64,000 bases of DNA from NCBI GenBank assembly GCA_001822815.1, contig MHSR01000013.1:18808-82807 (forward strand), read 5' to 3'. The position numbers were made by a program, and so were the translations under genes. This document shows positions 1 to 55,379 of this stretch, piece after piece. The notes under the pieces are model-generated. The model had not been told where the DNA came from. It made no database searches and saw only the letters and a list, made by a program, of their open reading frames with translations. Positions within the stretch are counted from its first letter, which is position 1. Each line of letters starts with the position of its first letter. This DNA comes from Candidatus Terrybacteria bacterium RIFCSPHIGHO2_01_FULL_43_35. GTDB taxonomy: Bacteria > Patescibacteriota > Minisyncoccia > Terrybacterales > GWB1-40-14.

Positions 1-511
1 AGTTGATTTGAAATTCACCGCCACCATGGAAGAAGATTTGGATAAGATAGCCGGAGGCAAGATGGCCTGGGTGCCGGTAATCAAGGAATTTTACGACCCG
101 TTTTCAAAACACCTGGCTGAAAAATACGAGACGGTTGAGAAAAAAGAATTGGTTACGGAAACTACGGACGAAATATGTGAAAAATGCGGCAAGCCTATGA
201 TCATCCGTTTCGGCAGGTTCGGAAAATTCATGGCTTGCTCCGGTTTTCCTGAATGTCGCAATACCAAAACGCTTAAGAAAGGATTGGGCGTTTCGTGCCC
301 ATCATGTCTCAAAGGAGAAATTATTGAACGCAAAAGCAAGCGCGGAAGATTCTTTTATGGATGTTCCAGCTATCCAGACTGCACTTTTGCCTTGTGGGAA
401 AAACCAACCGGAGAAAAGTGTCCTACCTGCGGCTCGCTTTTGGTACAGAATAAATCGGGAAAAAGATGTTCCAATAAAGAGTGTCTGAATGCTAAAGGTT
501 TGGAGAAGTAA
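1..511 (+). CDS. topA: DNA topoisomerase I, C-terminal zinc-ribbon region. The 5' end is truncated by the window edge.
   Basis: Repeated C4 zinc-ribbon motifs (CEKCGKPMIIRFGRFGKFMACSGFPEC; CPSC..C; CPTC..C) typical of the TopA C-terminus. The ORF is open to the window start. Confidence 0.7.
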   Translation, partial: VDLKFTATMEEDLDKIAGGKMAWVPVIKEFYDPFSKHLAEKYETVEKKELVTETTDEICEKCGKPMIIRFGRFGKFMACSGFPECRNTKTLKKGLGVSCPSCLKGEIIERKSKRGRFFYGCSSYPDCTFALWEKPTGEKCPTCGSLLVQNKSGKRCSNKECLNAKGLEK

Positions 512-5237: not shown

Positions 5238-5344
5238 AAATCCAAATTAACACGAGCGTTTGGGCTTGGCAACGAACAAAAAAGGCTATATTATTTTTGT
5301 GGGCATGCGGCAGAACAGTATATTTGCCCTCACTCATCAATTTT

Positions 5345-5425
5345 GCCGAAGTGGCGGAATGGCAGACGCGCACGACTCAAAATCGTGTGAGGAAACTCAT
5401 GAGGGTTCGACTCCCTCCTTCGGCA
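5345..5425 (+). tRNA. tRNA-Leu (anticodon CAA), long variable arm, no encoded CCA
   Basis: Manual cloverleaf: acceptor GCCGAAG/CTTCGGC, D-arm, anticodon stem CACGA/TCGTG with loop CTCAAAA, long variable arm, T-arm GAGGG-TTCGACT-CCCTC. Confidence 0.85.
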
Positions 5426-5480
5426 CAAACGCAAAATTTAGTGCTGGGGCGCGCACCGACTTCTAGCACCAGAATGAATT

Positions 5481-5543
5481 CGGTGCGGTACAGGCAAAAT
5501 CGTGTGGAGAAATCCATGAGAGTTTGACTCTCTCCTCGCTCAC
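5481..5543 (+). pseudogene. Degenerate partial copy of the 3' half of tRNA-Leu (anticodon-stem remnant, variable arm, T-arm, acceptor 3' strand). It cannot form an acceptor stem.
   Basis: CAAAATCGTGTGGAGAAATCCATGAGAGTTTGACTCTCTCCTCGCTCACA is about 80% identical to the 3' half of the upstream tRNA-Leu. No complementary 5' acceptor strand lies upstream. Confidence 0.6.
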
Positions 5544-5557
5544 ATAGCATAAAAAGC

Positions 5558-5585
5558 AAAAATCCCGCAAACTACGGGATTTTTG
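5558..5585. terminator. Bidirectional intrinsic terminator (AAAAATCCCG-loop-CGGGATTTTT)
   Basis: Perfect 10-bp stem flanked by an A-run and a T-run. It lies between the tRNA-Leu locus (+) and the hup 3' end (-). Confidence 0.7.
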
Positions 5586-8047: not shown

Positions 8048-9883
8048 TTATTCAACTGTCACCGACTTCGCTAAATTACGCGGTTTGTCTACATCGCACC
8101 CTCGCGCTACGGCGGTGTGATAGGCCAAAAGGTGCAGGGGAACGGTGGTCAAAATAGGCGAAAGTGGTTCCAAAACCTTCGGGATGAATATCGCGGTATC
8201 GGCGACTTTCAAAATATGCTCGTCCCCTTCGGTAGCAATGGCCAGAATAGGTCCGCCGCGGGCTTTTATCTCTTCTAGATTAGAAATGGTTTTCTCATAC
8301 ACGGAATCTTGCGGCACTATAGCTATTGTTGGGAAAGAAGAATCTATCAAGGCTATAGGCCCGTGCTTCATTTCCGCGGCGTTATACCCTTCGGCATGAA
8401 GATAGGATACTTCCTTAAGTTTCAAAGCCCCTTCTAAGGCGACTGGGAAATTGTATTTGCGGCCTAGGAAAAATATGTGCTCGGCGTCTTTGAGCCAGTT
8501 AGCCAATTGCGCGAAAAATTGCTCCTGCGCCAATATCTGGTTTATTTTTTCGGGTATGGTTATAAGTTCATTCAGTAGTTCTTTAGCGCGCGATACTTCA
8601 AGATTCCTCATGCGCCCCATGAAAACTGCGAGCATGTTCAAAACAATAAGCTGGGACAAAAAGGCTTTAGTTGAAGCTACGGCAATTTCTGGTCCAGCGT
8701 GGTTATATATTCCGGCATCAGTTTCGCGGGCCACCGATGAACCCACAACATTAACTATGCCCATGGTAAGTACGTTGCGTCTTTTGGCTTCGCGTACTGC
8801 GGCAAGCGTATCTGCGGTTTCGCCGGATTGCGAAACAGCGATTAGAACGGTGTGACTGCGGTCATTTAAAATGGGATTGCGGTATCTAAATTCAGCCGCG
8901 TATTCAACTTCGCATGGAACACCGGCCAACTCTTCAAAAAGATACTCGCCTATCAAAGCGGCGTGATAAGCCGTACCCATGCCGGTAAGAATTATTCGGT
9001 TGGTTTCGGAAAGACGCTTGGCGATATCTTCCAAGCCGCCTAATTTCACTAAGCCCTGATCCGCCATGACGCGTCCGCGCATGGTGTTTTGAATAACTTC
9101 GGGGCCTTCAAAAATTTCTTTGTGCATAAAATGCGGGTGACCTGATTTTTCCGCTTCTTCAAGCGTCCAGGGAATTTCCACCAGACGCTTAACCAAGTCT
9201 TCTCCGCCAAGATCTTTAATACGGAACCCTTCACTGGTTAATGTAGCCATTTCGCCGTCTTCAATAAAGATAACTTTTTTTGTAGCGGCAATAACCGCCG
9301 ATGGATCGGAAGCCAGCAAAGTTTCGCCATCGCCTATTCCTATAAGCAGGGGCGAAGAATTACGCGCGGCAACTATTTTTTGTGGGTCGCCTTCTGAAAT
9401 CACTGCCAGCGCGTATGTACCTCGAACGCGGGCCAAAGCTTGGGCAATAGCATCTTCAAGCGTACCTCGAAACAAACTTTCTATTAAATGCGCCAAAACT
9501 TCGGTATCGGTATCCGAAGAAAACTTATGACCTGAGGCCATAAGTTCATTTTTTATGGGGATATAATTTTCTATTATGCCGTTATGAACAATAAAAATTT
9601 TGCCGGTGCAATCGGTGTGAGGATGCGCATTAATATCATTTGGCACACCGTGCGTCGCCCACCTGGTATGCCCTATCGCTACGGTTCCCAATGGGACGCT
9701 TTTGTTAACTTCGCTTTCAAGTTTGGCTACGCGACCGGCGTTCTTCAGAAATTTTATCGGCTCGCCGATGTTGTGTACCGCGATGCCTGCGGAATCGTAG
9801 CCTCGATATTCGAGCCGTTTCAAACCATCCATTACAATGGGTGTAGCTTGTTTATTACCTATGTAACCAACAATTCCGCACAT
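8048..9883 (-). CDS. glmS: Glutamine--fructose-6-phosphate aminotransferase
   Basis: MCGIVGY N-terminal nucleophile, two SIS domains, C-terminal ...VTVE. Confidence 0.9.
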   Translation of the reverse strand: MCGIVGYIGNKQATPIVMDGLKRLEYRGYDSAGIAVHNIGEPIKFLKNAGRVAKLESEVNKSVPLGTVAIGHTRWATHGVPNDINAHPHTDCTGKIFIVHNGIIENYIPIKNELMASGHKFSSDTDTEVLAHLIESLFRGTLEDAIAQALARVRGTYALAVISEGDPQKIVAARNSSPLLIGIGDGETLLASDPSAVIAATKKVIFIEDGEMATLTSEGFRIKDLGGEDLVKRLVEIPWTLEEAEKSGHPHFMHKEIFEGPEVIQNTMRGRVMADQGLVKLGGLEDIAKRLSETNRIILTGMGTAYHAALIGEYLFEELAGVPCEVEYAAEFRYRNPILNDRSHTVLIAVSQSGETADTLAAVREAKRRNVLTMGIVNVVGSSVARETDAGIYNHAGPEIAVASTKAFLSQLIVLNMLAVFMGRMRNLEVSRAKELLNELITIPEKINQILAQEQFFAQLANWLKDAEHIFFLGRKYNFPVALEGALKLKEVSYLHAEGYNAAEMKHGPIALIDSSFPTIAIVPQDSVYEKTISNLEEIKARGGPILAIATEGDEHILKVADTAIFIPKVLEPLSPILTTVPLHLLAYHTAVARGCDVDKPRNLAKSVTVE

Positions 9884-10130
9884 GCTAGTTGTTGCTCCCG
9901 AACCTTGCGAGGGATTGCAACAACTGCATCCCGAGCGCAGCGAGGGAGTACCTTAATGACGCTTGCCCACGAGCCGCGCGAGTGTTCCGACGATACGTCG
10001 GGACTAAAGCGCAACCGATGGATTACCTGTTAATGTTGGTGTTGCCCACACCATGCGTGGATGCAATTTCGTGCATCCCGACGCACGGTAAGGACTACTC
10101 TAACAACTTATTACTTCTATCATATCACCT
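9884..10130. repeat. Dispersed intergenic repeat element (family A) directly abutting the glmS start codon
   Basis: A 49-nt block (TTGCCCACGAGCCGCGCGAGTGTTCCGACGATACGTCGGGACTAAAGCG) is 48/49 identical to the reverse complement of 38772-38820. It shares the CTAGTTGTTGC start-proximal box with copies at 34581, 38858 and 39694. Confidence 0.7.
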
Positions 10131-10178: not shown

Positions 10179-12641
10179 TTAAACCACTATATTCAACAGT
10201 TTATCCTGCACATAAACGATCCGGTGTATTTTCTTATCCTTGGTGTACTTGAAAACATTTTCAAGATTAAGTGCTTTGGCCACAACCACGTCTTCAGCCA
10301 AACCGCTTGGCACTTTAAAAGTAGCACGCATTTTACCGTTAATCTGAACAACAACCAAAACCTCGTTCTGTTCTAAGGCAACTGGATCATAAACGGGCCA
10401 TCTTTCTTGTTGCACAGAATTATTATGCCCCAATTTTTCTTGCCAAAGTTCTTCGGCTAAATGAGGCGCGAAAGGAGAAACTAAAAGCACCAAGGTTTTG
10501 GCATCTGCTAAACTAACATTTTGCCTGTCCGCGTCATGGAGCGCGTTTACATACTCCATCAGTGAGCTGATAGCGGTATTAAATGAAAAATTCTCTATAT
10601 CTTTAGTGACCACTTTTATGGCCATGTTGCGCGCAAAATGAGTAGCGGCACTTCTGGTATTATCTTCGTTTAGAATTTTGCCGTCGTTTATCAAATTATA
10701 TATACGGCTCAAGAAACGCCATAAACCTATAATACCGCGCGTATCCCATGGTTTCTGATCTTCAAACGGTCCCAGAAAAAGCTCGTACATTCTTAAAGAA
10801 TCCGCGCCGTATAAATCTACAAGTTCATCCGGGTTGATTATATTACCTCTGGATTTAGACATTTTTTGTCCGTCCTGGCCCAAGATCAGACCCTGATTGA
10901 TCAATTTAGTGAAAGGTTCTTTGGTTGAAACCAGGCCAAGATCAAAAAGGAATTTATGCCAAAATCTTGCATAAAGCAGATGCAAAACGGCGTGCTCGAC
11001 ACCGCCGACATACAAATCAACGCCCATCCAATATTTTTCTTTTCTCTCGTCAACAATAGCCTTGTTGTTTTCTGGATCAATGAAACGCAGATAATACCAG
11101 CAGGAACCAGCCCACTGCGGCATAGTATTTGTTTCGCGTTTGGCTTTTGTACCGCAACGCGGGCATTCGGTGTTGACCCAACTGTCGATTTTTGCCAATG
11201 GCGATTCTCCGGTTCCGGTAGGTTCGTAACTTAAAATTTCTGGCAGCGTGAGAGGCAATGCCTCTTCTGGCAATGGCACAGCTCCGCATTTTGGACAATG
11301 AACTATCGGGATTGGCTCACCCCAATATCGCTGGCGGGAAAAAATCCAGTCGCGTAATTTATAGTTGACCATACCTCTGGCCAAACCATGCGCCTGCAGC
11401 CAGACAATAATCCTTGCTCGGGCATCTTCATTCCAAAGACCGTTGAATTCTCCCGAGTCTACCATGATGCCCTCGTGCGTGTGGGCTTCTTTTAACAAAC
11501 GATGTTTTTTGTTGTCTGGAGTAATAACCTCATTTATAGGCAGGTCATATTTCTTGGCAAAATCAAAATCTCTCTGATCGTGAGCCGGAACGGCCATTAT
11601 GGCTCCAGTTCCGTAATGCTCAAGGACATAGTCGGCCACAAAAACAGGTATTTTCTTTTTATCGGCGGGATTTATAGCCACTACACCCTCTAATTTAACG
11701 CCGGTTTTTTCGCCCGCCCCCCCCTGCCGCTCGCGGTCGCTTTTCTTTTTAGCCGCCTCTATATACTTTTCAACTTCGGACTTATTAGCAATGTGGCCTT
11801 CAAGCTTGTGCATCAGGGCGTGTTCCGGAGCCATGACAACATAGGTGGCGCCGAAAACAGTATCTGCCCTGGTAGTAAATACGGGCAATTCTAATTTCAA
11901 AGCAGATTTTTTGCCGGTCTTTTCAAGTTTAAAAATTATTTCTGCGCCATCAGATCTCCCAATCCAATTGCGCTGCATTTCTTTTATGTTTTCTGGCCAA
12001 TCAAGTTCGTCCAGATTATTAAGCAAACGGTCGGCATAAGCAGTAATCTTAAGCAGCCATTGTCTTATATTTTTTTTGATCACTGGCGTGCCGCAACGTT
12101 CACACTTGCCATCCACAACCTCTTCATTGGCCAGACCAGTGCCATCTTTTGGACAGAAGTTTATAGGCGCTTCAGATTCATAGGCCAATCCTTTTTCAAA
12201 AAGCTTTAAAAATATCCATTGCGTCCAGCGATAATACTCTGGATCGGTGGTATTTATTTCACGCTGCCAATCGTAAGAAAAACCCAAACTTTTAAGCTGG
12301 CTTCGGAAGCGCGTAATATTTTCCCCAACAGATTTTGAGGGGTGAGTTTTGCTTTTTATGGCGTAATTCTCTGCTGGTAAGCCAAAAGCGTCCCAACCCA
12401 TGGGATGCAAAACGTTTTTGCCGCGCATGCGCCAGTAACGACTCAAAACATCTGTAGCCGTGTATCCCTCGACATGACCGACATGCAAACCTTCGCCGGA
12501 TGGGTACGGAAACATGTCCAGAACATAATACTTGGATTTTTCATATCCGACATCCGGCAGATCTTGCGCGGCAAAAAGTTCTGGATGTTCTTCCCAGTAT
12601 TTCTGCCATCGCGCTTCAATTTTTTTAGGATTGTAGGGCAC
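10179..12641 (-). CDS. leuS: Leucyl-tRNA synthetase
   Basis: HVGH and KMSKS motifs, CP1 editing domain, 820 aa. Confidence 0.9.
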   Translation of the reverse strand: MPYNPKKIEARWQKYWEEHPELFAAQDLPDVGYEKSKYYVLDMFPYPSGEGLHVGHVEGYTATDVLSRYWRMRGKNVLHPMGWDAFGLPAENYAIKSKTHPSKSVGENITRFRSQLKSLGFSYDWQREINTTDPEYYRWTQWIFLKLFEKGLAYESEAPINFCPKDGTGLANEEVVDGKCERCGTPVIKKNIRQWLLKITAYADRLLNNLDELDWPENIKEMQRNWIGRSDGAEIIFKLEKTGKKSALKLELPVFTTRADTVFGATYVVMAPEHALMHKLEGHIANKSEVEKYIEAAKKKSDRERQGGAGEKTGVKLEGVVAINPADKKKIPVFVADYVLEHYGTGAIMAVPAHDQRDFDFAKKYDLPINEVITPDNKKHRLLKEAHTHEGIMVDSGEFNGLWNEDARARIIVWLQAHGLARGMVNYKLRDWIFSRQRYWGEPIPIVHCPKCGAVPLPEEALPLTLPEILSYEPTGTGESPLAKIDSWVNTECPRCGTKAKRETNTMPQWAGSCWYYLRFIDPENNKAIVDERKEKYWMGVDLYVGGVEHAVLHLLYARFWHKFLFDLGLVSTKEPFTKLINQGLILGQDGQKMSKSRGNIINPDELVDLYGADSLRMYELFLGPFEDQKPWDTRGIIGLWRFLSRIYNLINDGKILNEDNTRSAATHFARNMAIKVVTKDIENFSFNTAISSLMEYVNALHDADRQNVSLADAKTLVLLVSPFAPHLAEELWQEKLGHNNSVQQERWPVYDPVALEQNEVLVVVQINGKMRATFKVPSGLAEDVVVAKALNLENVFKYTKDKKIHRIVYVQDKLLNIVV

Positions 12642-12677
12642 AGTAAAAGTTAAAAATTTAAAGCGAAAAATGTAAAA

Positions 12678-13115
12678 TTAATCCAAGATTTCTTGCATTT
12701 TAGATAATACTATAGATCGCGCGTTGTCTTCGCCAAGCATATTAATAAATTTACCAAAAACGCTATCCATATCTAAATCACGTCTAAAAATAGGTTTAAA
12801 ATTAGAATAGGCAACAAAGCCTATCCCGTTTGCTGTTTTATTGCATCGGCATTCTAAAACAACATCGGTGTCATCAATACCACTATCTTTATAAATCCCA
12901 GTGTGATTTGACGATAACCAAATATCGAAATTTTTAGTAACAGCTATTGCAATGGCCTTACCGTCTTCAAGATCTCTTTTTAAATAACTTAAAGAAGAAC
13001 CTTCTCCAATTTTTACGCGCAAAATGCTAGACAGCTCTTCTGCGGAATATCTTTCTTTGTCTTCATCTACCTCTTTAATTTCGGCATGTGAAGTTGGTTT
13101 TTCTCTGGGGCCCAT
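12678..13115 (-). CDS. Hypothetical protein (145 aa)
   Basis: ORF in an operon-like array downstream of tatD. No motif recognised. Confidence 0.45.
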   Translation of the reverse strand: MGPREKPTSHAEIKEVDEDKERYSAEELSSILRVKIGEGSSLSYLKRDLEDGKAIAIAVTKNFDIWLSSNHTGIYKDSGIDDTDVVLECRCNKTANGIGFVAYSNFKPIFRRDLDMDSVFGKFINMLGEDNARSIVLSKMQEILD

Positions 13116-25468: not shown

Positions 25469-28400
25469 TTATTTCGTCTTTCTAATCCCAATCCATATTT
25501 TACTGTCGCCAAGTGAAAACTCCCGTTCAATGATAAATGTTTCGTTCTTGCGCTTCTCCCCCGTCTCCACCCGTTTGGCATAAACATCTTCTTTTATTTC
25601 CTGCGCGCGCTCCATAATATCGCGTCCAAAGTTTTCACTGGCCCAAATGCGTAAAGTTATCCTCTCTTTTGGTTTCAAACCGGCATCTTTGCGAGTGTTT
25701 TGTATCTGCCGTACAAGCTCGCGCATGGCGCCAAGCAACATGAGGGTAGGCGTTATGTGTATATTCAGAGCCATACCTTGTTCGGTATCACGAAGCCATT
25801 CTTGCCCATCTGGCAAAGAAGAAAGTATAGCCACGCTGCCAACGTTCATTTCTTCACAAAGAACTCTAAAAAGACCCTTATCTAATTTTTCTTTATTGGC
25901 GACTTTGGCCGTAAGAACCAGGGACGAAAGCGGCTGGCGCACTTTATGTCCGCTTTGAGCCCTTAGTTTAAGCGCAATCTGAATTTTGGCGCGCAAAGCC
26001 TCCATACTTTTTTCAAGTTTGGAATTTTGGGTTTTTTTATTTATTTGAGGCATGCGCTCAAGATGCACCGAAGCCTTAAGCCCCAAGCCCAGCCATAACT
26101 GCTCGGCAACAAACGGAGCAAACGGGGCGGCCAGCAAAGCGGTTTGTTTCAAAACAAAACTAAGAACTTCTGTCACCTGGACAAGCTCTTTTTTATTTTT
26201 GGGATGCTGAAATCTTTCGCGCGAGCGTCTAATATACCAGTTGGACAGGTCATCAATCACAAAAGCGCTTAAAGCACGTGTGGCGGCGGTGATATCATAA
26301 TTATCCATGCGCTTAATAATCTGTTCGCTTGCGGTGGCAAGACGCGATAATATCCATTTATCAAGAATATCGGTTGACGCTGGCGCTTTCGTATTTTTTA
26401 GCGCGCTAGCGGCGTAAAGCTTAAAAAAGGATAGAGAATTCCAGAGCGTACCCAAAAATTTCTGCTGCGCGTCTTTAAGTTCTTCTTCGTTGAAGCGCTT
26501 AGTGTCTGACGGGTGATTCATGGTGTAGAAATACCAACGTACGGCATCGGCCCCGTAAAGATCGGTCATATCCCACGGGCTTATCGCATTGCCCAGAGAC
26601 TTGGACATTTTTTTGCCATTTTTATCTACCACGTGACCGGTCACAACAACATTCTTATACGGCGTGCTTTTGCCGAGCAAAACAGAAACAGCCATGAGGG
26701 TATAAAACCATCCGCGCGTTTGATCTACGGCCTCGCAGATGAAATCAGCCGGGAAAGAAAGAGCTTTTTTATTTCCGCTCTTCTCAACGCGGTTTTTATT
26801 TTCAAAAGGATAATGCCACTGGGCAAAAGGCATGGCACCGGAATCAAACCAGACATCAATTACTTCACTCACCCGTTTCATAGGATGCGCGCACTTTTTA
26901 CACGCAAAAGTCAGGTCATCAACAAAAGGACGGTGCAGATCCAAACGGCCAGTATCGTCTGAAGGCGGCATTGAAGAAAGGATTTTTTCTTCTTTAGCAA
27001 AATCGGGATATGTCAGTTTGGGCGTACCGGCTTTTTTTGTCTTGAGATACGGCTCAACATATTCTTTATCCTCCGCGCCAAGCAAAATACCCTTAAGCAG
27101 CAGTAAGGGATCGCCGTGCCCAACCAACACAATGGTTTTATCGTTATAGATTTTCTCGAGATTCTGTATAAAATAATACATGCGGTTTCTAAGATCGAAC
27201 CAATTTTCGCCATTTAATGGCTTTTTGTGCCAGCGTTCGCCTGGCTTGTGTTCCAGGAAATCGTGATATTCTTTTATCGGCATGCTGTTGAATGCTCCCA
27301 AATCAAACTCGCGCAGTTCTGTTTCTTTTTTGGGCTTGATACCGCACGCTTTCCCCATAATTTCCGCCGTATCATTTGCCCTTTGAAGTGGTGAGGTGAA
27401 AATAATATCTGGTTTGATCCGCGCAATTCTTTTTGCGGCAGCGCGAGCCTGTTTTATACCGCGAGCGGTCAATGGATTACGTTTGTTTTCGGGCCAAGAA
27501 GAAACCCAACCCTGTACATTAGCCCTGGCTTGGGCATGACGAACCAAAATATATTTATTTTTTGTCTGTGAACGGGACAAAAGCTCTTTTATTGAGCCGA
27601 TGACTTCAGTTTGACCACATTGTTCGCATTTCCAAACAGGCAGTGGTATGCCCCAGTAGCGCTCGCGCGATATTGCCCAATCCTTAACTTCGTTCAGCCA
27701 CTCTCCGAATCTACCTCTTTTTATGTGTTCCGGTACCCAATTTACTTTTTCATTAGCTTCGCGGAGCTGTTTGCGCAATGCCGACATGCGTATGAACCAA
27801 CTTTGGCGGGCGTAATAAAGTAGTGGAGTTTTGCATCGCCAACAGAAAGGATAATCGTGAGTATAAAGTTCTTCCTTTAAAATAAGGTTGCGCTGATGTA
27901 AATATGAATTTATCACTATTTCTGCTTCTTTTGATTTGACCGGCAAGCCCGCCAGACCAGCATTAACCGTGTTCAAAAATCTTCCGTCCTCGCCTACTGT
28001 ATGGACTTTCGGCAAGCCAATCTTTGAGCCCAAATTATAATCGTCCTCGCCATACATGACCGCGGTATGAACTACGCCGGTGCCGTCTTCAGTGGTCACG
28101 AAATCGGCGGCATAAACTTTATGACTTTTTTCGTTTTTGGTTTCTGGGATATCAAAAAGGGGTTCATATTCAAGCCCCACTAACCTTGAACCCTTAATTT
28201 CGGCTAAAATATTTAACGGCTCTTTAAATAAACGCGCTGCGGCATCTTTAGCCAAAATATAAACTTCACCGCTGCCAACCTGCGCTTGTACGTAATCTAT
28301 GTCGTTGTTTACAGCCAAAGCCACGTTACCCGGCAAGGTCCAAGGAGTTGTAGTCCAACTTAATATGTAAGTATGTTTTTTGTCTTTTATTCTAAATTTA

Positions 28401-28999
28401 ATATAAACCGAATTTTCGGTGACCGATTCATATCCTTGAGCAACTTCGTGCGAAGCCAAAGCCGTACCACAGCGCGTACAATAAGGCACGACCTTAAAAT
28501 CCTGCTCCAATAATTTTTTATTCCATATCTCTTTTATTATTCGCCAAACGCTTTCTATGTAAGAATTATCGTAAGTAACGTATGGATCTGTAAGATCCAA
28601 CCATAAGCCTATACGCTCGGTTAAGCGCTGCCATTCATCTTTATAGCGCCATACGGATGCTTTGGCTTTCGCGTTAAACTCGGCAATGCCATAATCTTCA
28701 ATTTCTTGCTTGGTTTTGAAGCCCAATTCTTTCTCAACTCCAATTTCAACCGGCAAGCCATGTGTATCCCAACCGGCTTTACGCTCAACCAAAAAACCTT
28801 GCATGGTTTTGTAACGCAAAAAAGCATCTTTGATTGCGCGAACCAAAACATGATGTATACCTGGCTGGCCGTTGGCTGTGGGCGGACCTTCAAAAAAAAC
28901 AAAACGCGGTGCGCGGGCGCGCCTCTTTAAACTTTTGGCAAAGATTTTATTATCTTCCCAATATCTAAGTATTTCTTTTTCTTGTTCGGCAAAGTTCAT
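25469..28999 (-). CDS. ileS: Isoleucyl-tRNA synthetase with an inserted histidine-phosphatase-like domain
   Basis: The N-terminal class I signature region reads ...GIHHV..., and WAISRERYWG, KMSKSLGN and the anticodon-binding domain are all present. Total length is 1176 aa, including an extra domain at aa 482-660. Confidence 0.9.
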   Translation of the reverse strand: MNFAEQEKEILRYWEDNKIFAKSLKRRARAPRFVFFEGPPTANGQPGIHHVLVRAIKDAFLRYKTMQGFLVERKAGWDTHGLPVEIGVEKELGFKTKQEIEDYGIAEFNAKAKASVWRYKDEWQRLTERIGLWLDLTDPYVTYDNSYIESVWRIIKEIWNKKLLEQDFKVVPYCTRCGTALASHEVAQGYESVTENSVYIKFRIKDKKHTYILSWTTTPWTLPGNVALAVNNDIDYVQAQVGSGEVYILAKDAAARLFKEPLNILAEIKGSRLVGLEYEPLFDIPETKNEKSHKVYAADFVTTEDGTGVVHTAVMYGEDDYNLGSKIGLPKVHTVGEDGRFLNTVNAGLAGLPVKSKEAEIVINSYLHQRNLILKEELYTHDYPFCWRCKTPLLYYARQSWFIRMSALRKQLREANEKVNWVPEHIKRGRFGEWLNEVKDWAISRERYWGIPLPVWKCEQCGQTEVIGSIKELLSRSQTKNKYILVRHAQARANVQGWVSSWPENKRNPLTARGIKQARAAAKRIARIKPDIIFTSPLQRANDTAEIMGKACGIKPKKETELREFDLGAFNSMPIKEYHDFLEHKPGERWHKKPLNGENWFDLRNRMYYFIQNLEKIYNDKTIVLVGHGDPLLLLKGILLGAEDKEYVEPYLKTKKAGTPKLTYPDFAKEEKILSSMPPSDDTGRLDLHRPFVDDLTFACKKCAHPMKRVSEVIDVWFDSGAMPFAQWHYPFENKNRVEKSGNKKALSFPADFICEAVDQTRGWFYTLMAVSVLLGKSTPYKNVVVTGHVVDKNGKKMSKSLGNAISPWDMTDLYGADAVRWYFYTMNHPSDTKRFNEEELKDAQQKFLGTLWNSLSFFKLYAASALKNTKAPASTDILDKWILSRLATASEQIIKRMDNYDITAATRALSAFVIDDLSNWYIRRSRERFQHPKNKKELVQVTEVLSFVLKQTALLAAPFAPFVAEQLWLGLGLKASVHLERMPQINKKTQNSKLEKSMEALRAKIQIALKLRAQSGHKVRQPLSSLVLTAKVANKEKLDKGLFRVLCEEMNVGSVAILSSLPDGQEWLRDTEQGMALNIHITPTLMLLGAMRELVRQIQNTRKDAGLKPKERITLRIWASENFGRDIMERAQEIKEDVYAKRVETGEKRKNETFIIEREFSLGDSKIWIGIRKTK

Positions 29000-37552: not shown

Positions 37553-37935
37553 GGGGATGCCGGGCTTCGAAAAGGAAAAGTGTAGCGCGCGCAGGACGAG
37601 GCCGATCAACAACCTCGAAAAAAGTTGATCACTTACAAGTGCAAACTTGTTCGCAAAAGTGCAGAACGCTTTCCGCGTTCCAGCATTTGCTCTTGCTTAA
37701 ATTAGCTTGAGCCATCCGGCCCTGATGCTCGATAAGGAAACGCCGGGTGCCATACATCGAGCTTGACTAGCATAAGGACCTCGCTTGCGCTACGCGACTC
37801 AAACAGGGGTAGGAATATCTGAAATTCTGCCGTTCTTTGACCGGATATTCTGACAAAACATTACAGAATGGCTAATCCTGTAGAAGCGTGCCGCATAATT
37901 TTTCTTTGACGTGGGTTCAACTCCCACCATCTCCA
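37553..37935 (+). ncRNA. ssrA: tmRNA (SsrA)
   Basis: 5' GGGGATGCCGGGCTTCGA... pairs with 3' ...GACGTGGGTTCAACTCCCACCATCTCCA (tRNA-like domain). An internal tag frame at 37640-37699 ends ...AFALA-TAA. Located immediately after smpB. Confidence 0.8.
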
Positions 37936-38026
37936 CAAACCATGCCGACAATTTATAAATAGTTTTAACTATCTGCAAAAGTTTAATTATTATCAGCGCC
38001 GTCCGCAGTTTCAACGAGGACCGCGC

Positions 38027-53916: not shown

Positions 53917-53967
53917 ATAGAATGTATAAGTTATATAATAAGATTTACTTTTAAAATAATCAATGCT

Positions 53968-54020
53968 GTGCCCCCGCGAGGAATTGAACCCCGATTTCAG
54001 CCTCCGGCTTGCCCCGCGCT
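53968..54020 (-). pseudogene. Degenerate partial copy of the 3' half of tRNA-Arg (T-arm plus acceptor 3' strand). It cannot form a complete cloverleaf.
   Basis: The minus-strand sequence CCGGAGGCTGAAATCGGGGTTCAATTCCTCGCGGGGGCACA parallels the tRNA-Arg 3' half (CCGGAGGAGGAGACTGGGGGTTCGATTCCTCTCGAGGACA). No matching 5' acceptor strand. Confidence 0.55.
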
Positions 54021-54040
54021 AAATTTGTATTACCTGTGCG

Positions 54041-54113
54041 TGTCCTCGAGAGGAATCGAACCCCCAGTCTCCTCCTCCGGAGGGAGGCGTTTTATCCATT
54101 AAACTACGAGGAC
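54041..54113 (-). tRNA. tRNA-Arg (anticodon CCG), no encoded CCA
   Basis: Manual cloverleaf on the minus strand: acceptor GTCCTCG/CGAGGAC, D-stem GTTT/AAAC, anticodon stem CCTCC/GGAGG with loop CTCCGGA, T-loop TTCGATT. Confidence 0.8.
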
Positions 54114-54481
54114 AAATTTTAGTGCGAGGGCGTTGTCAGCCACCTTATGATAAAGTCGCGTGCGATTTTTGCCACGCCGTAGCGTGATCCCACCTTCTTA
54201 AAAAATTAAATAACTGTGACAGAAAAATGCGAATCCGCCTGTGGCGGAAACTATAAGCGCATTATACATCTATAACTACCTTTGAAAAGTTTATTTGTTC
54301 AACGATAGTACCCGCCGCATGCGCTTTTCTTTGATTGTTTTTGACATAGATATAGCCATTTCTCATTGTGGAGAAAACCGCCATATGTGTCTGCACATTA
54401 CCACTATGTATTGACTTTTTCTATAATAAGTATATACTATATTTACTCAGTTCTCACCAGCATACCAAAAAGGAGCTCTCC

Positions 54482-54712
54482 ATGTTTCGGCTATTCGCCT
54501 GGCTCCAATCACACAACTCCTTTAAGACAAGTGATAGACAATGTCGGCTTTGTCGTCTCAATCCCGGACGATGCCCCGTGTGTAGGGGGTCCCGCATCGT
54601 ACCAGGCCTCCTTTTGGGCTACCCGTGTTTGTTATGTAAAAACTCCTCGGGAATCTGTCCGGACTGCGACGGCAACGGCGTCCGCGAAGAGGCGCCTGCA
54701 AACGGTGGCTAA
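54482..54712 (+). CDS. Small cysteine-rich protein (76 aa) with four CxxC repeats resembling a DnaJ-type zinc-finger (CxxCxGxG) domain
   Basis: CRLC, CPVCRGSR, CLLC and CPDCDGNG motifs. AAAGGAG SD 7 nt upstream of the ATG. GC-rich relative to its flanks. Terminator hairpin at 54925-54955. Confidence 0.55.
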   Translation: MFRLFAWLQSHNSFKTSDRQCRLCRLNPGRCPVCRGSRIVPGLLLGYPCLLCKNSSGICPDCDGNGVREEAPANGG

Positions 54713-55139
54713 AAAGCTTCATTGCTTCAAAATCTCCGGTTCGATAGAAACCCCTCGTGCGCATATCCCAGACGAGTACACGACCGCCCATTCTGCGGCA
54801 CGGGCAATGCGAAATGTTGCGAGGCGCTTAGAGGAACGGTATGGACTCGCCGAAGGCGCTCTTTATACTGGAAACCTCAGGGCGGTCCCGTGCAACGAGG
54901 ACCAACCCAACGATAAAAAAATCCCGTAGCAATACGGGATATTATTACGCCAGCGAAACGTGGCGTTCGTTGAATGTTTCCGGCCCCATGTTGGCTTCGC
55001 TACATCTTTATCCGCCCGTTCTGCGCGTTGCGAAGCCGGCGCTGAAACAAAAACTTTTCCCGCACGAAACGCCCGCGAAACGCGCTGGGTGTTCTATACG
55101 CAACTTTGTCACGTTTTGCCGCTTTCATTGAGTATTTTT

Positions 55140-55379
55140 TCATAATCTTAAACTCGGCAATATGGCCCCTCGTTGTTCAATCCATCCACGGTGATATATT
55201 TCTATACCATCCTGCAATATGAGCAAAAACCAGAATATGGCAATTAACAACGCGATCTTGAACCAATTTTCTTTCGCGAAGTTTACTATTTTTTTTGAGT
55301 AGTGTTGATTTTCCCATATAAAGTTAATAAAAAATATAAGACTTACGCGCTTACCTTTTTGAGCGGATTCCGAGGCCAT
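55140..55379 (-). CDS. Small membrane protein (79 aa), hypothetical
   Basis: Central hydrophobic helix (IALLIAIFWFLLIL). Confidence 0.35.
   Translation of the reverse strand: MASESAQKGKRVSLIFFINFIWENQHYSKKIVNFAKENWFKIALLIAIFWFLLILQDGIEIYHRGWIEQRGAILPSLRL

Follow-up and report, generated by a model that had tools for sequence, protein, structure and literature searches.

The stretch of DNA analysed here (‘the window’) comprises 64,000 nucleotides (nt) of contig MHSR01000013.1, from Candidatus Terrybacteria bacterium RIFCSPHIGHO2_01_FULL_43_35, and carries one gene for tRNA-Arg(CCG) and one for tRNA-Leu(CAA), each of which is trailed by a piece of a second tRNA of the same identity. The two loci lie around 49 kb apart, and are the only tRNA genes in the 84 kb that are accessible for this organism (the window plus 20 kb of flanking sequence).

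At the Arg locus, the original prediction, made from the letters of the sequence alone, had placed an intact tRNA-Arg at 54041-54113 of the minus strand; both ARAGORN (54040..54113) and Rfam model RF00005 (54041..54113, 65.7 bits) call the gene at this site. A tRNA-derived string, CCGGAGGCTGAAATCGGGGTTCAATTCCTCGCGGGGGCACA, was said to follow it, and this we locate to 54007..53967 of the same strand. Local alignment of the string with its intact neighbour gives 32 identities in 41 positions (78%) and a score of 21, with the similarity spanning anticodon base 34 through to the 3' end, as against a maximum of 13 among 2000 dinucleotide-preserving shuffles, the test of significance used for our local alignments; the similarity thus stands up to the check that had been proposed for it. 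The stated spacing needed correction, in that 33 nt, rather than 20, separate the discriminator of the intact gene (54041) from the base at which the match begins (54007); the string also overshoots the tRNA-like piece by two bases, to 53967. Within the piece the T arm still pairs (CGGGG/TTCAATT/CCTCG), and the acceptor 3' strand reads CGGGGGC, followed by discriminator A. The features of the Arg locus are as follows:

54041..54113, minus strand: intact tRNA-Arg(CCG), the ‘C-type’ allele, in which every stem pairs (acceptor GTCCTCG/CGAGGAC; ARAGORN and Rfam)
54008..54040, minus strand: spacer of 33 nt between the intact tRNA-Arg and the remnant, ending in CAAG
54011..54026, minus strand: motif copy AAATTTAGCGCGGGGC, within the Arg spacer (similarity to the Leu-locus copy, p ~0.007)
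53969..54007, minus strand: truncated tRNA-Arg(CCG) pseudogene, the ‘A-type’, from anticodon position 34 to discriminator A73
54114..54131, plus strand: inverted motif copy AAATTTTAGTGCGAGGGC, abutting the 5' end of tRNA-Arg (16/19 against the Leu-locus copy, p ~7e-4)

The same logic had been claimed for the Leu locus and is borne out there, down to a remnant that also starts at position 34, with the same motif and a CA[AG]G sequence ahead of it. On the plus strand we find:

5345..5425, plus strand: intact tRNA-Leu(CAA), acceptor GCCGAAG/CTTCGGC (ARAGORN; Rfam, 59.2 bits)
5434..5450, plus strand: motif copy AAATTTAGTGCTGGGGC, 8 nt after tRNA-Leu
5452..5487, plus strand: hairpin in the Leu spacer with a stem of 8 unbroken base pairs, CGCACCGA / TCGGTGCG (repeat search and minimum-free-energy fold)
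5495..5542, plus strand: truncated tRNA-Leu(CAA) pseudogene, from position 34 to the discriminator, with variable and T arms intact and acceptor 3' strand CTCGCTC
5557..5585, plus strand: intrinsic-terminator-like hairpin, after the Leu remnant

Between 5495 and 5536 the Leu remnant matches positions 34-75 of tRNA-Leu (gene 5345..5426) at 35 of 42 bases (83%), with an alignment score of 28 compared with a shuffle maximum of 16, and it lies 68 nt beyond the intact gene. Chance similarity to tRNAs was considered for both remnants and rejected, since the scores lie above those of every shuffle. At normal thresholds, ARAGORN and Rfam both pass over the two remnants, and lowering the thresholds yields solely implausible calls. 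A strict search for 5' halves across the 84 kb, which recovered the real 5' halves as positive controls, produced no credible partner for either remnant, in keeping with the original claim that the Arg piece has none.

An assembly artefact can be ruled out as the source of both loci, because the same sequence recurs in independent assemblies: that of the Arg locus in ENA ERZ4903055, Logan SRR2090153 and NCBI GCA_001822905.1, and that of the Leu locus in ENA ERZ4903055 and JGI 3300002502. The window is also 100% identical to MHSX01000014.1 (GCA_001822905.1) over the 10.6 kb in which the two overlap. Judged by the neighbouring proteins, it belongs to Patescibacteria/Parcubacteria, with Candidatus Terrybacteria as the nearest named relatives.

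Consensus scans for promoters and terminators predict that both the Arg and Leu remnants lie inside the transcription units of their tRNAs. The scan finds a promoter-like site at 5266..5294, ahead of tRNA-Leu, and as the Leu remnant falls between this site and the terminator-like hairpin at 5557..5585, it would be contained in the tRNA-Leu unit. The Arg remnant is most likely transcribed within the 3' trailer of the new tRNA and then trimmed off, and probably does nothing.

Relation of the remnants to working tRNA genes

The gene order RNaseH-like, tRNA-Arg(CCG), beta-CASP RNase, SLOG, MgtC is kept in three related genomes (L040-42, L043-44 and L045-46), whose beta-CASP proteins are 65-68% identical to that of the window. 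In L045 the tRNA-Arg(CCG), GTCCCCATAGCTTAACGGATAAAGCGCGGCCCTCCGGAGGCTGAGATCGGGGTTCGATTCCTCGTGGGGACA, ends 28 nt ahead of the beta-CASP gene, and it is on this same, beta-CASP side that the window remnant sits. The remnant is 90.2% identical to the 3' half of the L045/L046 tRNA-Arg over 41 nt (84.3% over 51 nt), and scores 35 against the L045 tRNA as opposed to 21 against its own neighbour, with shuffle maxima of 12-13; the intact tRNA-Arg of the window is itself 79% identical to the L045 gene, and has an exact 21-nt block of the T arm and acceptor in common with the L040 and L043 alleles. The original prediction had the string as the 3' half of the adjacent tRNA-Arg. That attribution fails, as the acceptor strands differ (CGGGGGC in the remnant, CGAGGAC in the intact gene) and the remnant is nearer to the L045 orthologue than to its neighbour, which argues that it is not a copy of the latter, but rather a leftover of an ancestral A-type gene.

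Identity to the L045 tRNA amounts to 37/41 from position 34 on, and to 14/33 in the preceding 33 nt. Uniform decay of a whole gene would not give so sharp a boundary, which suggests instead that everything 5' of the anticodon was replaced by something. The Arg spacer (54008..54040) has no significant similarity to the 5' half of the L045 tRNA (p ~0.23), and neither does the Leu spacer to tRNA 5' halves (p ~0.13). Extensions of the similarity into the D arm, suggested by BLAST for the Arg remnant (GCGGGGCAAG against GCGCGGCCCT) and by a match to CGCGCACCGACT for the Leu remnant, were rejected as not significant.

The Arg remnant, in short, is homologous to a working syntenic orthologue and has lost its 5' half, the two marks of a pseudogene. 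We consider it likely that 54007..53969 of the minus strand is the dead 3' half of the lineage's original tRNA-Arg(CCG), still at its site upstream of the beta-CASP RNase gene, and, with much the same confidence, that its function has passed to another, complete tRNA-Arg(CCG) 33 nt upstream of the remnant, which is of a distinct sequence type; the C-type gene at 54041..54113 is thus presumably a working replacement. We likewise consider it likely that the same displacement took place at the tRNA-Leu(CAA) locus.

The manner in which intact gene and remnant differ is informative here. At the Leu locus there are seven differences in 42 aligned bases, six of which make up three compensated base pairs: the variable arm is TGAG/CTCA in one copy and TGGA/TCCA in the other, and the T stem GAGGG/CCCTC and GAGAG/CTCTC, respectively. 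The seventh changes the conserved T-loop C56 to T in the remnant, and is a disabling change. At the Arg locus, the T stem reads GGGGG/CCTCT in the intact gene and CGGGG/CCTCG in the remnant, such that pair 49-65 is G-T in the former and C-G in the latter. The acceptor strands of intact genes and remnants differ at 2-4 positions, again in a coordinated manner. Judged from sequence, this is divergence of the type seen between working tRNAs, be they orthologues, xenologues or old paralogues, and the compensated differences indicate that both copies were functional alleles before one of them was truncated.

The flank upstream of tRNA-Arg also departs from that of the relatives. Their CYTH-like gene is absent, and its place is taken by ~800 nt of sequence with a higher guanine-cytosine (GC) content; in the window, ~600 nt (54440..55050) have a GC fraction of 0.53-0.56, compared to ~0.43 around them. 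The one sizeable open reading frame (ORF) in this region (54387..54929, plus strand, 180 residues) has no match in Pfam, PHROG or NCBIfam, and no homologue among 1.8 billion representative proteins. The possibility that the GC-rich segment (54440..54935) encodes a structured RNA was discarded, as it folds no better than shuffles on either strand and Rfam returns nothing. A small ORF at 55143..55051 (minus strand), which starts ATGAAAAAATACTCAATGAAAGCGGC and lies just after the RNaseH-like gene, has 63-70% nucleotide identity to L040 and L043, and marks the last homology with relatives before the region that replaces the CYTH-like gene.

Scans of genome and metagenome contigs with the beta-CASP protein returned nothing above 53% identity; nearer relatives, as judged by RNase Y (83-84% identity), are represented by contigs that end short of the tRNA, and no tRNA was found in L095. 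In a further relative, 75% identical (L094, a 766-nt contig; 1..419), there is no intact tRNA within 420 nt upstream of beta-CASP; a degenerate tRNA-like end, GGTTCAAGACCGTGTAGGGGCAC, is present there, followed by a conserved hairpin element. This element, of ~110 nt, stands directly after tRNA-Arg and upstream of beta-CASP in L040 (9862..9975) and L043 (9786..9900), and is also seen in L094 (231..300). It starts GAC[CT]AGAAAA, continues with a hairpin and then GCGGGATTCGCATTTTCAGGAGTCCCGCC, and ends GGCGAGGCGGGAATATTTATTGA; it forms nested stems, has no Rfam match, and may combine a terminator with a leader or small RNA. In the window, by contrast, a related hairpin lies upstream of tRNA-Arg, at 54251..54224 of the minus strand.

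Breakpoint, shared motif and recurrence

Supported similarity to tRNA starts at exactly position 34 in both remnants, and from there the blocks of exact identity to the intact genes run for 7 nt at the Arg locus (CCGGAGG) and for 12 nt at the Leu locus (CAAAATCGTGTG). Directly ahead of both remnants stands CA[AG]G, at the place taken by CU in a tRNA. The two spacers, in addition, contain a 17-nt motif, AAATTTAG[TC]GC.GGGGC, of which the copy abutting the 5' end of tRNA-Arg is an inverted third instance; pairwise, the similarities among the three copies have p values of ~7e-4, 0.007 and 0.015 against shuffles, whilst the similarity of a fourth candidate, upstream of tRNA-Leu, falls short of significance. 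Within the window, close matches to the motif are confined to the Arg and Leu loci. The loci of relatives have solely weaker matches that bear insertions or deletions, none of them noted beside a tRNA, and the nine viral matches, which come from a single unrelated phage family and from singletons, all lie away from tRNAs.

In computed folds, the inverted copy can pair either with the copy downstream of tRNA-Arg or, through its GCCCUCGC, with the 3' end of the Arg remnant; pairing of this leader sequence with CGGGGGC is no better than chance. A leader-trailer processing stem, as a feature of the lineage, was set aside given that relatives are without the motif and that the Leu fold does not form the stem. 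So too was a ‘nested’ tRNA, in which an old acceptor strand (GCCCTCG) upstream of the new gene would pair with the CGGGGGC of the remnant: appealing as this is in the fold, pyrimidine-rich heptamers that could form this pairing occur commonly, and nothing comparable is seen at the Leu locus.

For a survey of recurrence, each tRNA was aligned to 300 nt of flank on either side and the result tested against shuffles. Partial copies of the same identity were present at five of the seven Terrybacteria-like tRNA loci examined (tRNA-Leu and tRNA-Arg of the window, tRNA-Arg of L043 and of L040, and tRNA-Gly of L086), and several of their breakpoints fall in or beside the anticodon loop. The L043 locus has a 3' piece that begins from about position 37 and contains an exact 21-nt repeat starting in the T loop, the last 21 nt of the tRNA-Arg being found again 171 nt downstream (9957..9983), beside the start of the beta-CASP gene. 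In L040 it is the first 12 nt of tRNA-Arg that are repeated, 165 nt upstream (9612..9623) and directly after the original promoter, and at the L086 tRNA-Gly locus the 5' half of a different allele lies 40 nt upstream of the intact gene. The same flank alignment revealed no partial copy at the tRNA-Arg of L045, the tRNA-Pro of L086 or two distant Patescibacteria loci, and none trails the transfer-messenger RNA (tmRNA) gene of the window.

With regard to two of these loci, the 5'-half pseudo-copy of tRNA-Gly(TCC) in L086 (12391..12283, minus strand; GCA_001822835.1) sits between tRNA-Pro and the intact tRNA-Gly, and has a differing acceptor strand (GCGGGTG), then a 9-bp hairpin and TCCCGCC; it is identical in L087, L088 and L089. 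The tmRNA (37553..37938, plus strand) encodes the tag peptide ANLFAKVQNAFRVPAFALA, and the coding sequence upstream reaches to within a few bases of its 5' end.

From the parallel between the Arg and Leu loci, the original prediction had proposed a common mechanism, such as integrase scars, or a tRNA 3'-end-associated element specific to this lineage. The recurrence at five of seven loci speaks for the general idea, such that a common, lineage-recurrent process behind the trailing tRNA fragments is partly supported, and it is the integrase scar that fares badly, for reasons given below.

Possible routes to displacement of a resident tRNA gene

As a tentative first choice for how a resident tRNA might be displaced in this way, we propose an integrating element, since decayed, which brought along a cognate tRNA; ordinary recombination comes close behind it in likelihood. 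An integrase, an element and the decay of that element are all things that we infer. In outline, an integrating element would have entered the resident tRNA gene by recombination within its anticodon loop, across a very short core (CCGGAGG for Arg, CAAAATCGTGTG for Leu), leaving the host tRNA unrebuilt, and would have brought a complete cognate tRNA beside its attachment site. The far junction would then read: tRNA of the element, short arm, core, 3' half of the host gene, which is the layout at both loci. Having become indispensable, the tRNA of the element would be kept whilst streamlining removed the remainder, with the survivor consisting of the tRNA and a 33-68-bp arm bearing the 17-nt motif, a putative recombinase arm site; the attP expected under such a scheme would combine the motif with CCGGAGG or CAAAATCGTG. 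As the 5' acceptor strand of the intact tRNA-Leu is unable to pair with the remnant, the intact genes must have arrived as complete units, and an element of this kind would explain the common breakpoint, the motif, the allele difference and the foreign-looking upstream flank.

A precedent exists in the ‘tRNA-dependent lysogeny’ of mycobacteriophages and other actinobacteriophages, in which a tyrosine integrase acts on an 8-10-bp core in the anticodon region without restoring the host tRNA, and the phage supplies its own complete cognate tRNA, in one case tRNA-Leu-CAA (Guerrero-Bustamante and Hatfull 2024, PMC10865867). A complete cognate of different sequence that takes over is shared with the window loci, and a short core at an unrebuilt host tRNA would be so too. 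The phages are intact, inducible prophages of actinobacteria, however, whereas at the window loci no phage or integrase remains, the putative element is down to a tRNA and a short arm, and the host is a Patescibacterium. Taking the features of that system in turn, each locus does have an intact tRNA that agrees with the remnant in anticodon but not in sequence; neither a tyrosine integrase nor a prophage was found, with the 17-nt motif as a candidate arm site; and exact blocks of 7 and 12 nt run from position 34 in remnants that lack a 5' half, and might mark a short core, although neither attP nor attL is at hand to delimit it. By analogy, then, the window loci may be products of tRNA-dependent lysogeny.

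Several observations weigh against an element of this kind. No integrase, prophage or other mobile-element gene was found in the 84 kb, and housekeeping genes (LeuRS, MetRS, IleRS, ArgRS, RecO, PolX) fill the 48 kb from one tRNA to the other, a content that rules out an island of that size between them. No attL, in the sense of a host 5' half at the other end of the putative element, was found, and two independent elements would each need to have decayed almost completely; at the Leu locus just 107 nt separate parA from the tRNA. We found no phage or element with these tRNA alleles or the motif: viral scans gave zero, unrelated or generic matches, those for the Arg remnant and the C-type tRNA gave nothing, and blastn against phages gave generic tRNA similarity only. 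Nor does the scheme predict an inverted copy of the motif against the 5' end of tRNA-Arg, and, with the nearest relatives sharing 65-75% identity in the neighbouring protein, the order of events is beyond reconstruction.

Two further observations stand apart from the question of mechanism. One prophage end in an unrelated bacterium (L096, IMGVR_UViG_3300002546_000005; 11582..13057) lies beside a tRNA-Leu(CAA)/tRNA-Arg(ACG) cluster and encodes a tyrosine integrase with an arm-binding domain, a helix-turn-helix repressor, an ImmA-like peptidase and a Bro-N protein; its tRNA-Leu matches the window gene in the D arm and anticodon arm only. Among the housekeeping genes, the IleRS-like protein (25469..28999, minus strand, 1176 residues) has a histidine-phosphatase (His_Phos_1) domain inserted at residues 484-647, within the class I synthetase domain.

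Displacement of the ancestral gene without a site-specific recombinase is, as said, nearly as plausible, and might have come about in either of two ways: homology-facilitated illegitimate recombination, where DNA from a related lineage enters by one-sided homology and an illegitimate join within the resident tRNA, so that a foreign cognate lands upstream; or decay of an old tandem pair of cognates, whose downstream member later lost its 5' part. Diverged functional alleles and a foreign-looking flank of higher GC are as expected on this account, and it needs no integrase, fitting the absence of one. DprA is encoded next to the region and a Terrybacteria relative has genes for a type IV pilus and type II secretion system, both consistent with competence, and analogous orphaned 3' remnants, put down to this same mechanism, are documented at type VI secretion system (T6SS) and Rhs loci (PMC5361080; PMC3240628). 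The likeness to Rhs C-terminal displacement and to T6SS effector-immunity arrays lies in an incoming module that pushes an orphaned remnant of the resident downstream and leaves a serial record (PMC5361080), although those systems concern protein toxins and immunity genes, the orphans of which are still useful, whereas the window loci concern a tRNA whose orphan is apparently useless. What such displacement does not predict is a start at position 34, CA[AG]G or the 17-nt motif at both junctions. Published anchors for homology-facilitated illegitimate recombination are, moreover, far longer than any homology evident here, and against a tandem pair L045 has no trace of a second gene upstream, nor do L040 and L043 have an A-type remnant. 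It is also conceivable, if unlikely, that each remnant was once the 3' exon of a tRNA gene interrupted at 33/34 by a group I intron, of which the final 33-68 nt persist, an intron-less cognate having replaced the 5' exon and the intron core. The anticodon loops of Patescibacteria tRNA genes often harbour such introns (bioRxiv 10.1101/2025.07.03.662931), and the window loci share with them the phylum, a break at the known 33/34 insertion site, where tRNA similarity begins in both loci, and a G directly ahead of the downstream part, as for the terminal G of an intron. At the sequence level the UAG[UC]GC contained in the shared motif can pair with GCACUA upstream of tRNA-Arg, and the Leu spacer holds a strong hairpin. 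We take the former to resemble intron P7 and the latter P9. Set against this, no group I intron signal (RF00028, Rfam) is seen even at E-values of up to 10, the intron mode of ARAGORN finds no intron-containing tRNA that uses the remnants, and neither a 5' exon nor a core is detectable; spacers of 33-68 nt could not come close to housing a ribozyme, a complete tRNA gene would lie between the presumed P7 strands, and an intact, intron-less gene stands in the place of the intron.

The remaining explanations strike us as improbable to varying degrees. Least improbable among them are minimal ‘tRNA-replacement cassettes’ that would serially replace the tRNAs of Terrybacteria, each a tRNA with a 30-70-bp arm bearing AAATTTAG[TC]GC.GGGGC that recombines at 33/34, kills the resident and becomes indispensable; such a cassette, for which we would give long odds, would be something other than what an ordinary prophage leaves on decay, either an addictive mobile unit carried by a tRNA or a tRNA gene sitting inside the remains of an anticodon-loop intron. 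The classical integrase scar, in which the intact tRNA would be a chimera of host 5' and element 3' parts (attL) and the remnant the displaced 3' half of the host gene (attR), has a well-known counterpart in the displaced tRNA-gene fragments that Williams, in 2002, reportedly described at the ends of integrated islands and prophages. Fragments of this ‘Islander’ type stand at the ends of integrated islands or prophages (van der Gulik et al. 2023, PMC9897764), and the window remnants are like them in being the 3' part of a tRNA that lies downstream of an intact gene of matching anticodon and orientation, and in starting in the anticodon loop (PMC9897764; PMC4383910), a canonical sublocation occupied at 34 by both, and near 37 in L043, where the exact repeat runs from the T loop and lies 171 nt after the tRNA. 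A chimera is even sterically possible for Arg, GTCCTCG being able to pair with CGGGGGC via two G-U pairs. Islander-type fragments, however, are near-exact repeats of 30-45 bp or more, set apart by kilobases of island with an integrase and accompanied by a chimeric intact gene, whereas here identity is 78-83%, exact blocks are 7-12 nt, gaps are 33 and 68 nt and the 84 kb contain no integrase. For Leu, GCCGAAG pairs at just 3/7 positions with CTCGCTC, so that the remnant cannot be its former partner and the chimera is impossible, and for Arg the anticodon stem CCTCC is mismatched with GGCTG of the remnant at 2/5; we regard the scar, put forward in the original prediction, as very unlikely. Slightly less credible still is a functional RNA element, whether one half of a split or permuted tRNA, a processing or termination signal, or a decoy. 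The T arm and acceptor 3' strand are well preserved, the remnants lie within predicted tRNA transcription units, and a fold of the whole locus pairs the leader GCCCUCGC with the 3' end of the remnant into a tRNA-like outline; the leader pairing is at chance level, however, the Arg spacer plus remnant folds no better than shuffles (z = +0.5 to +0.9), the conserved C56 is mutated in the Leu remnant, and relatives have either no such element or different fragments. The split or permuted tRNA, which had been named as one finding that would overturn the original prediction, is in particular unsupported, with no 5' partner in 84 kb. Least probable of all is local duplication of the 3' half of the adjacent tRNA by slippage or template switching, followed by neutral decay: relatives do hold short exact repeats of tRNA ends (the first 12 nt in L040, the last 21 nt in L043), but the Arg remnant is nearer to the tRNA of another genome than to its own neighbour, six of the seven Leu differences are compensated and not the product of neutral decay, and the acceptor strands differ coordinately.

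In kind, what we describe is already known, namely tRNA-gene fragments left behind by gene turnover or integration, and it is best viewed as a modest curiosity concerning tRNA turnover in bacteria with tiny genomes; the shared motif and the exact 33/34 breakpoint would raise its interest somewhat. From a practical standpoint, such fragments may be miscalled in annotation or mask the true gene, and fragment-based island finders expect kilobases between tRNA and fragment, where in this Patescibacterium there are 33-68 nt.

Finally, if displacement of the ancestral genes is correct, the two loci would document a route by which a very small genome can take on a foreign allele of a tRNA gene that is essential and present once, at no point going without it: the newcomer lands within or next to the resident and takes over from it, and the 3' half of the resident stays on as a fossil. 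Allele replacement, as opposed to drift by point mutation, would then explain the presence of three very different tRNA-Arg(CCG) genes at one syntenic site. Should tRNA-dependent integration prove to be the route, a behaviour known only from actinobacteriophages would extend to the candidate phyla radiation, and its long-term outcome would be the domestication of the element's tRNA.

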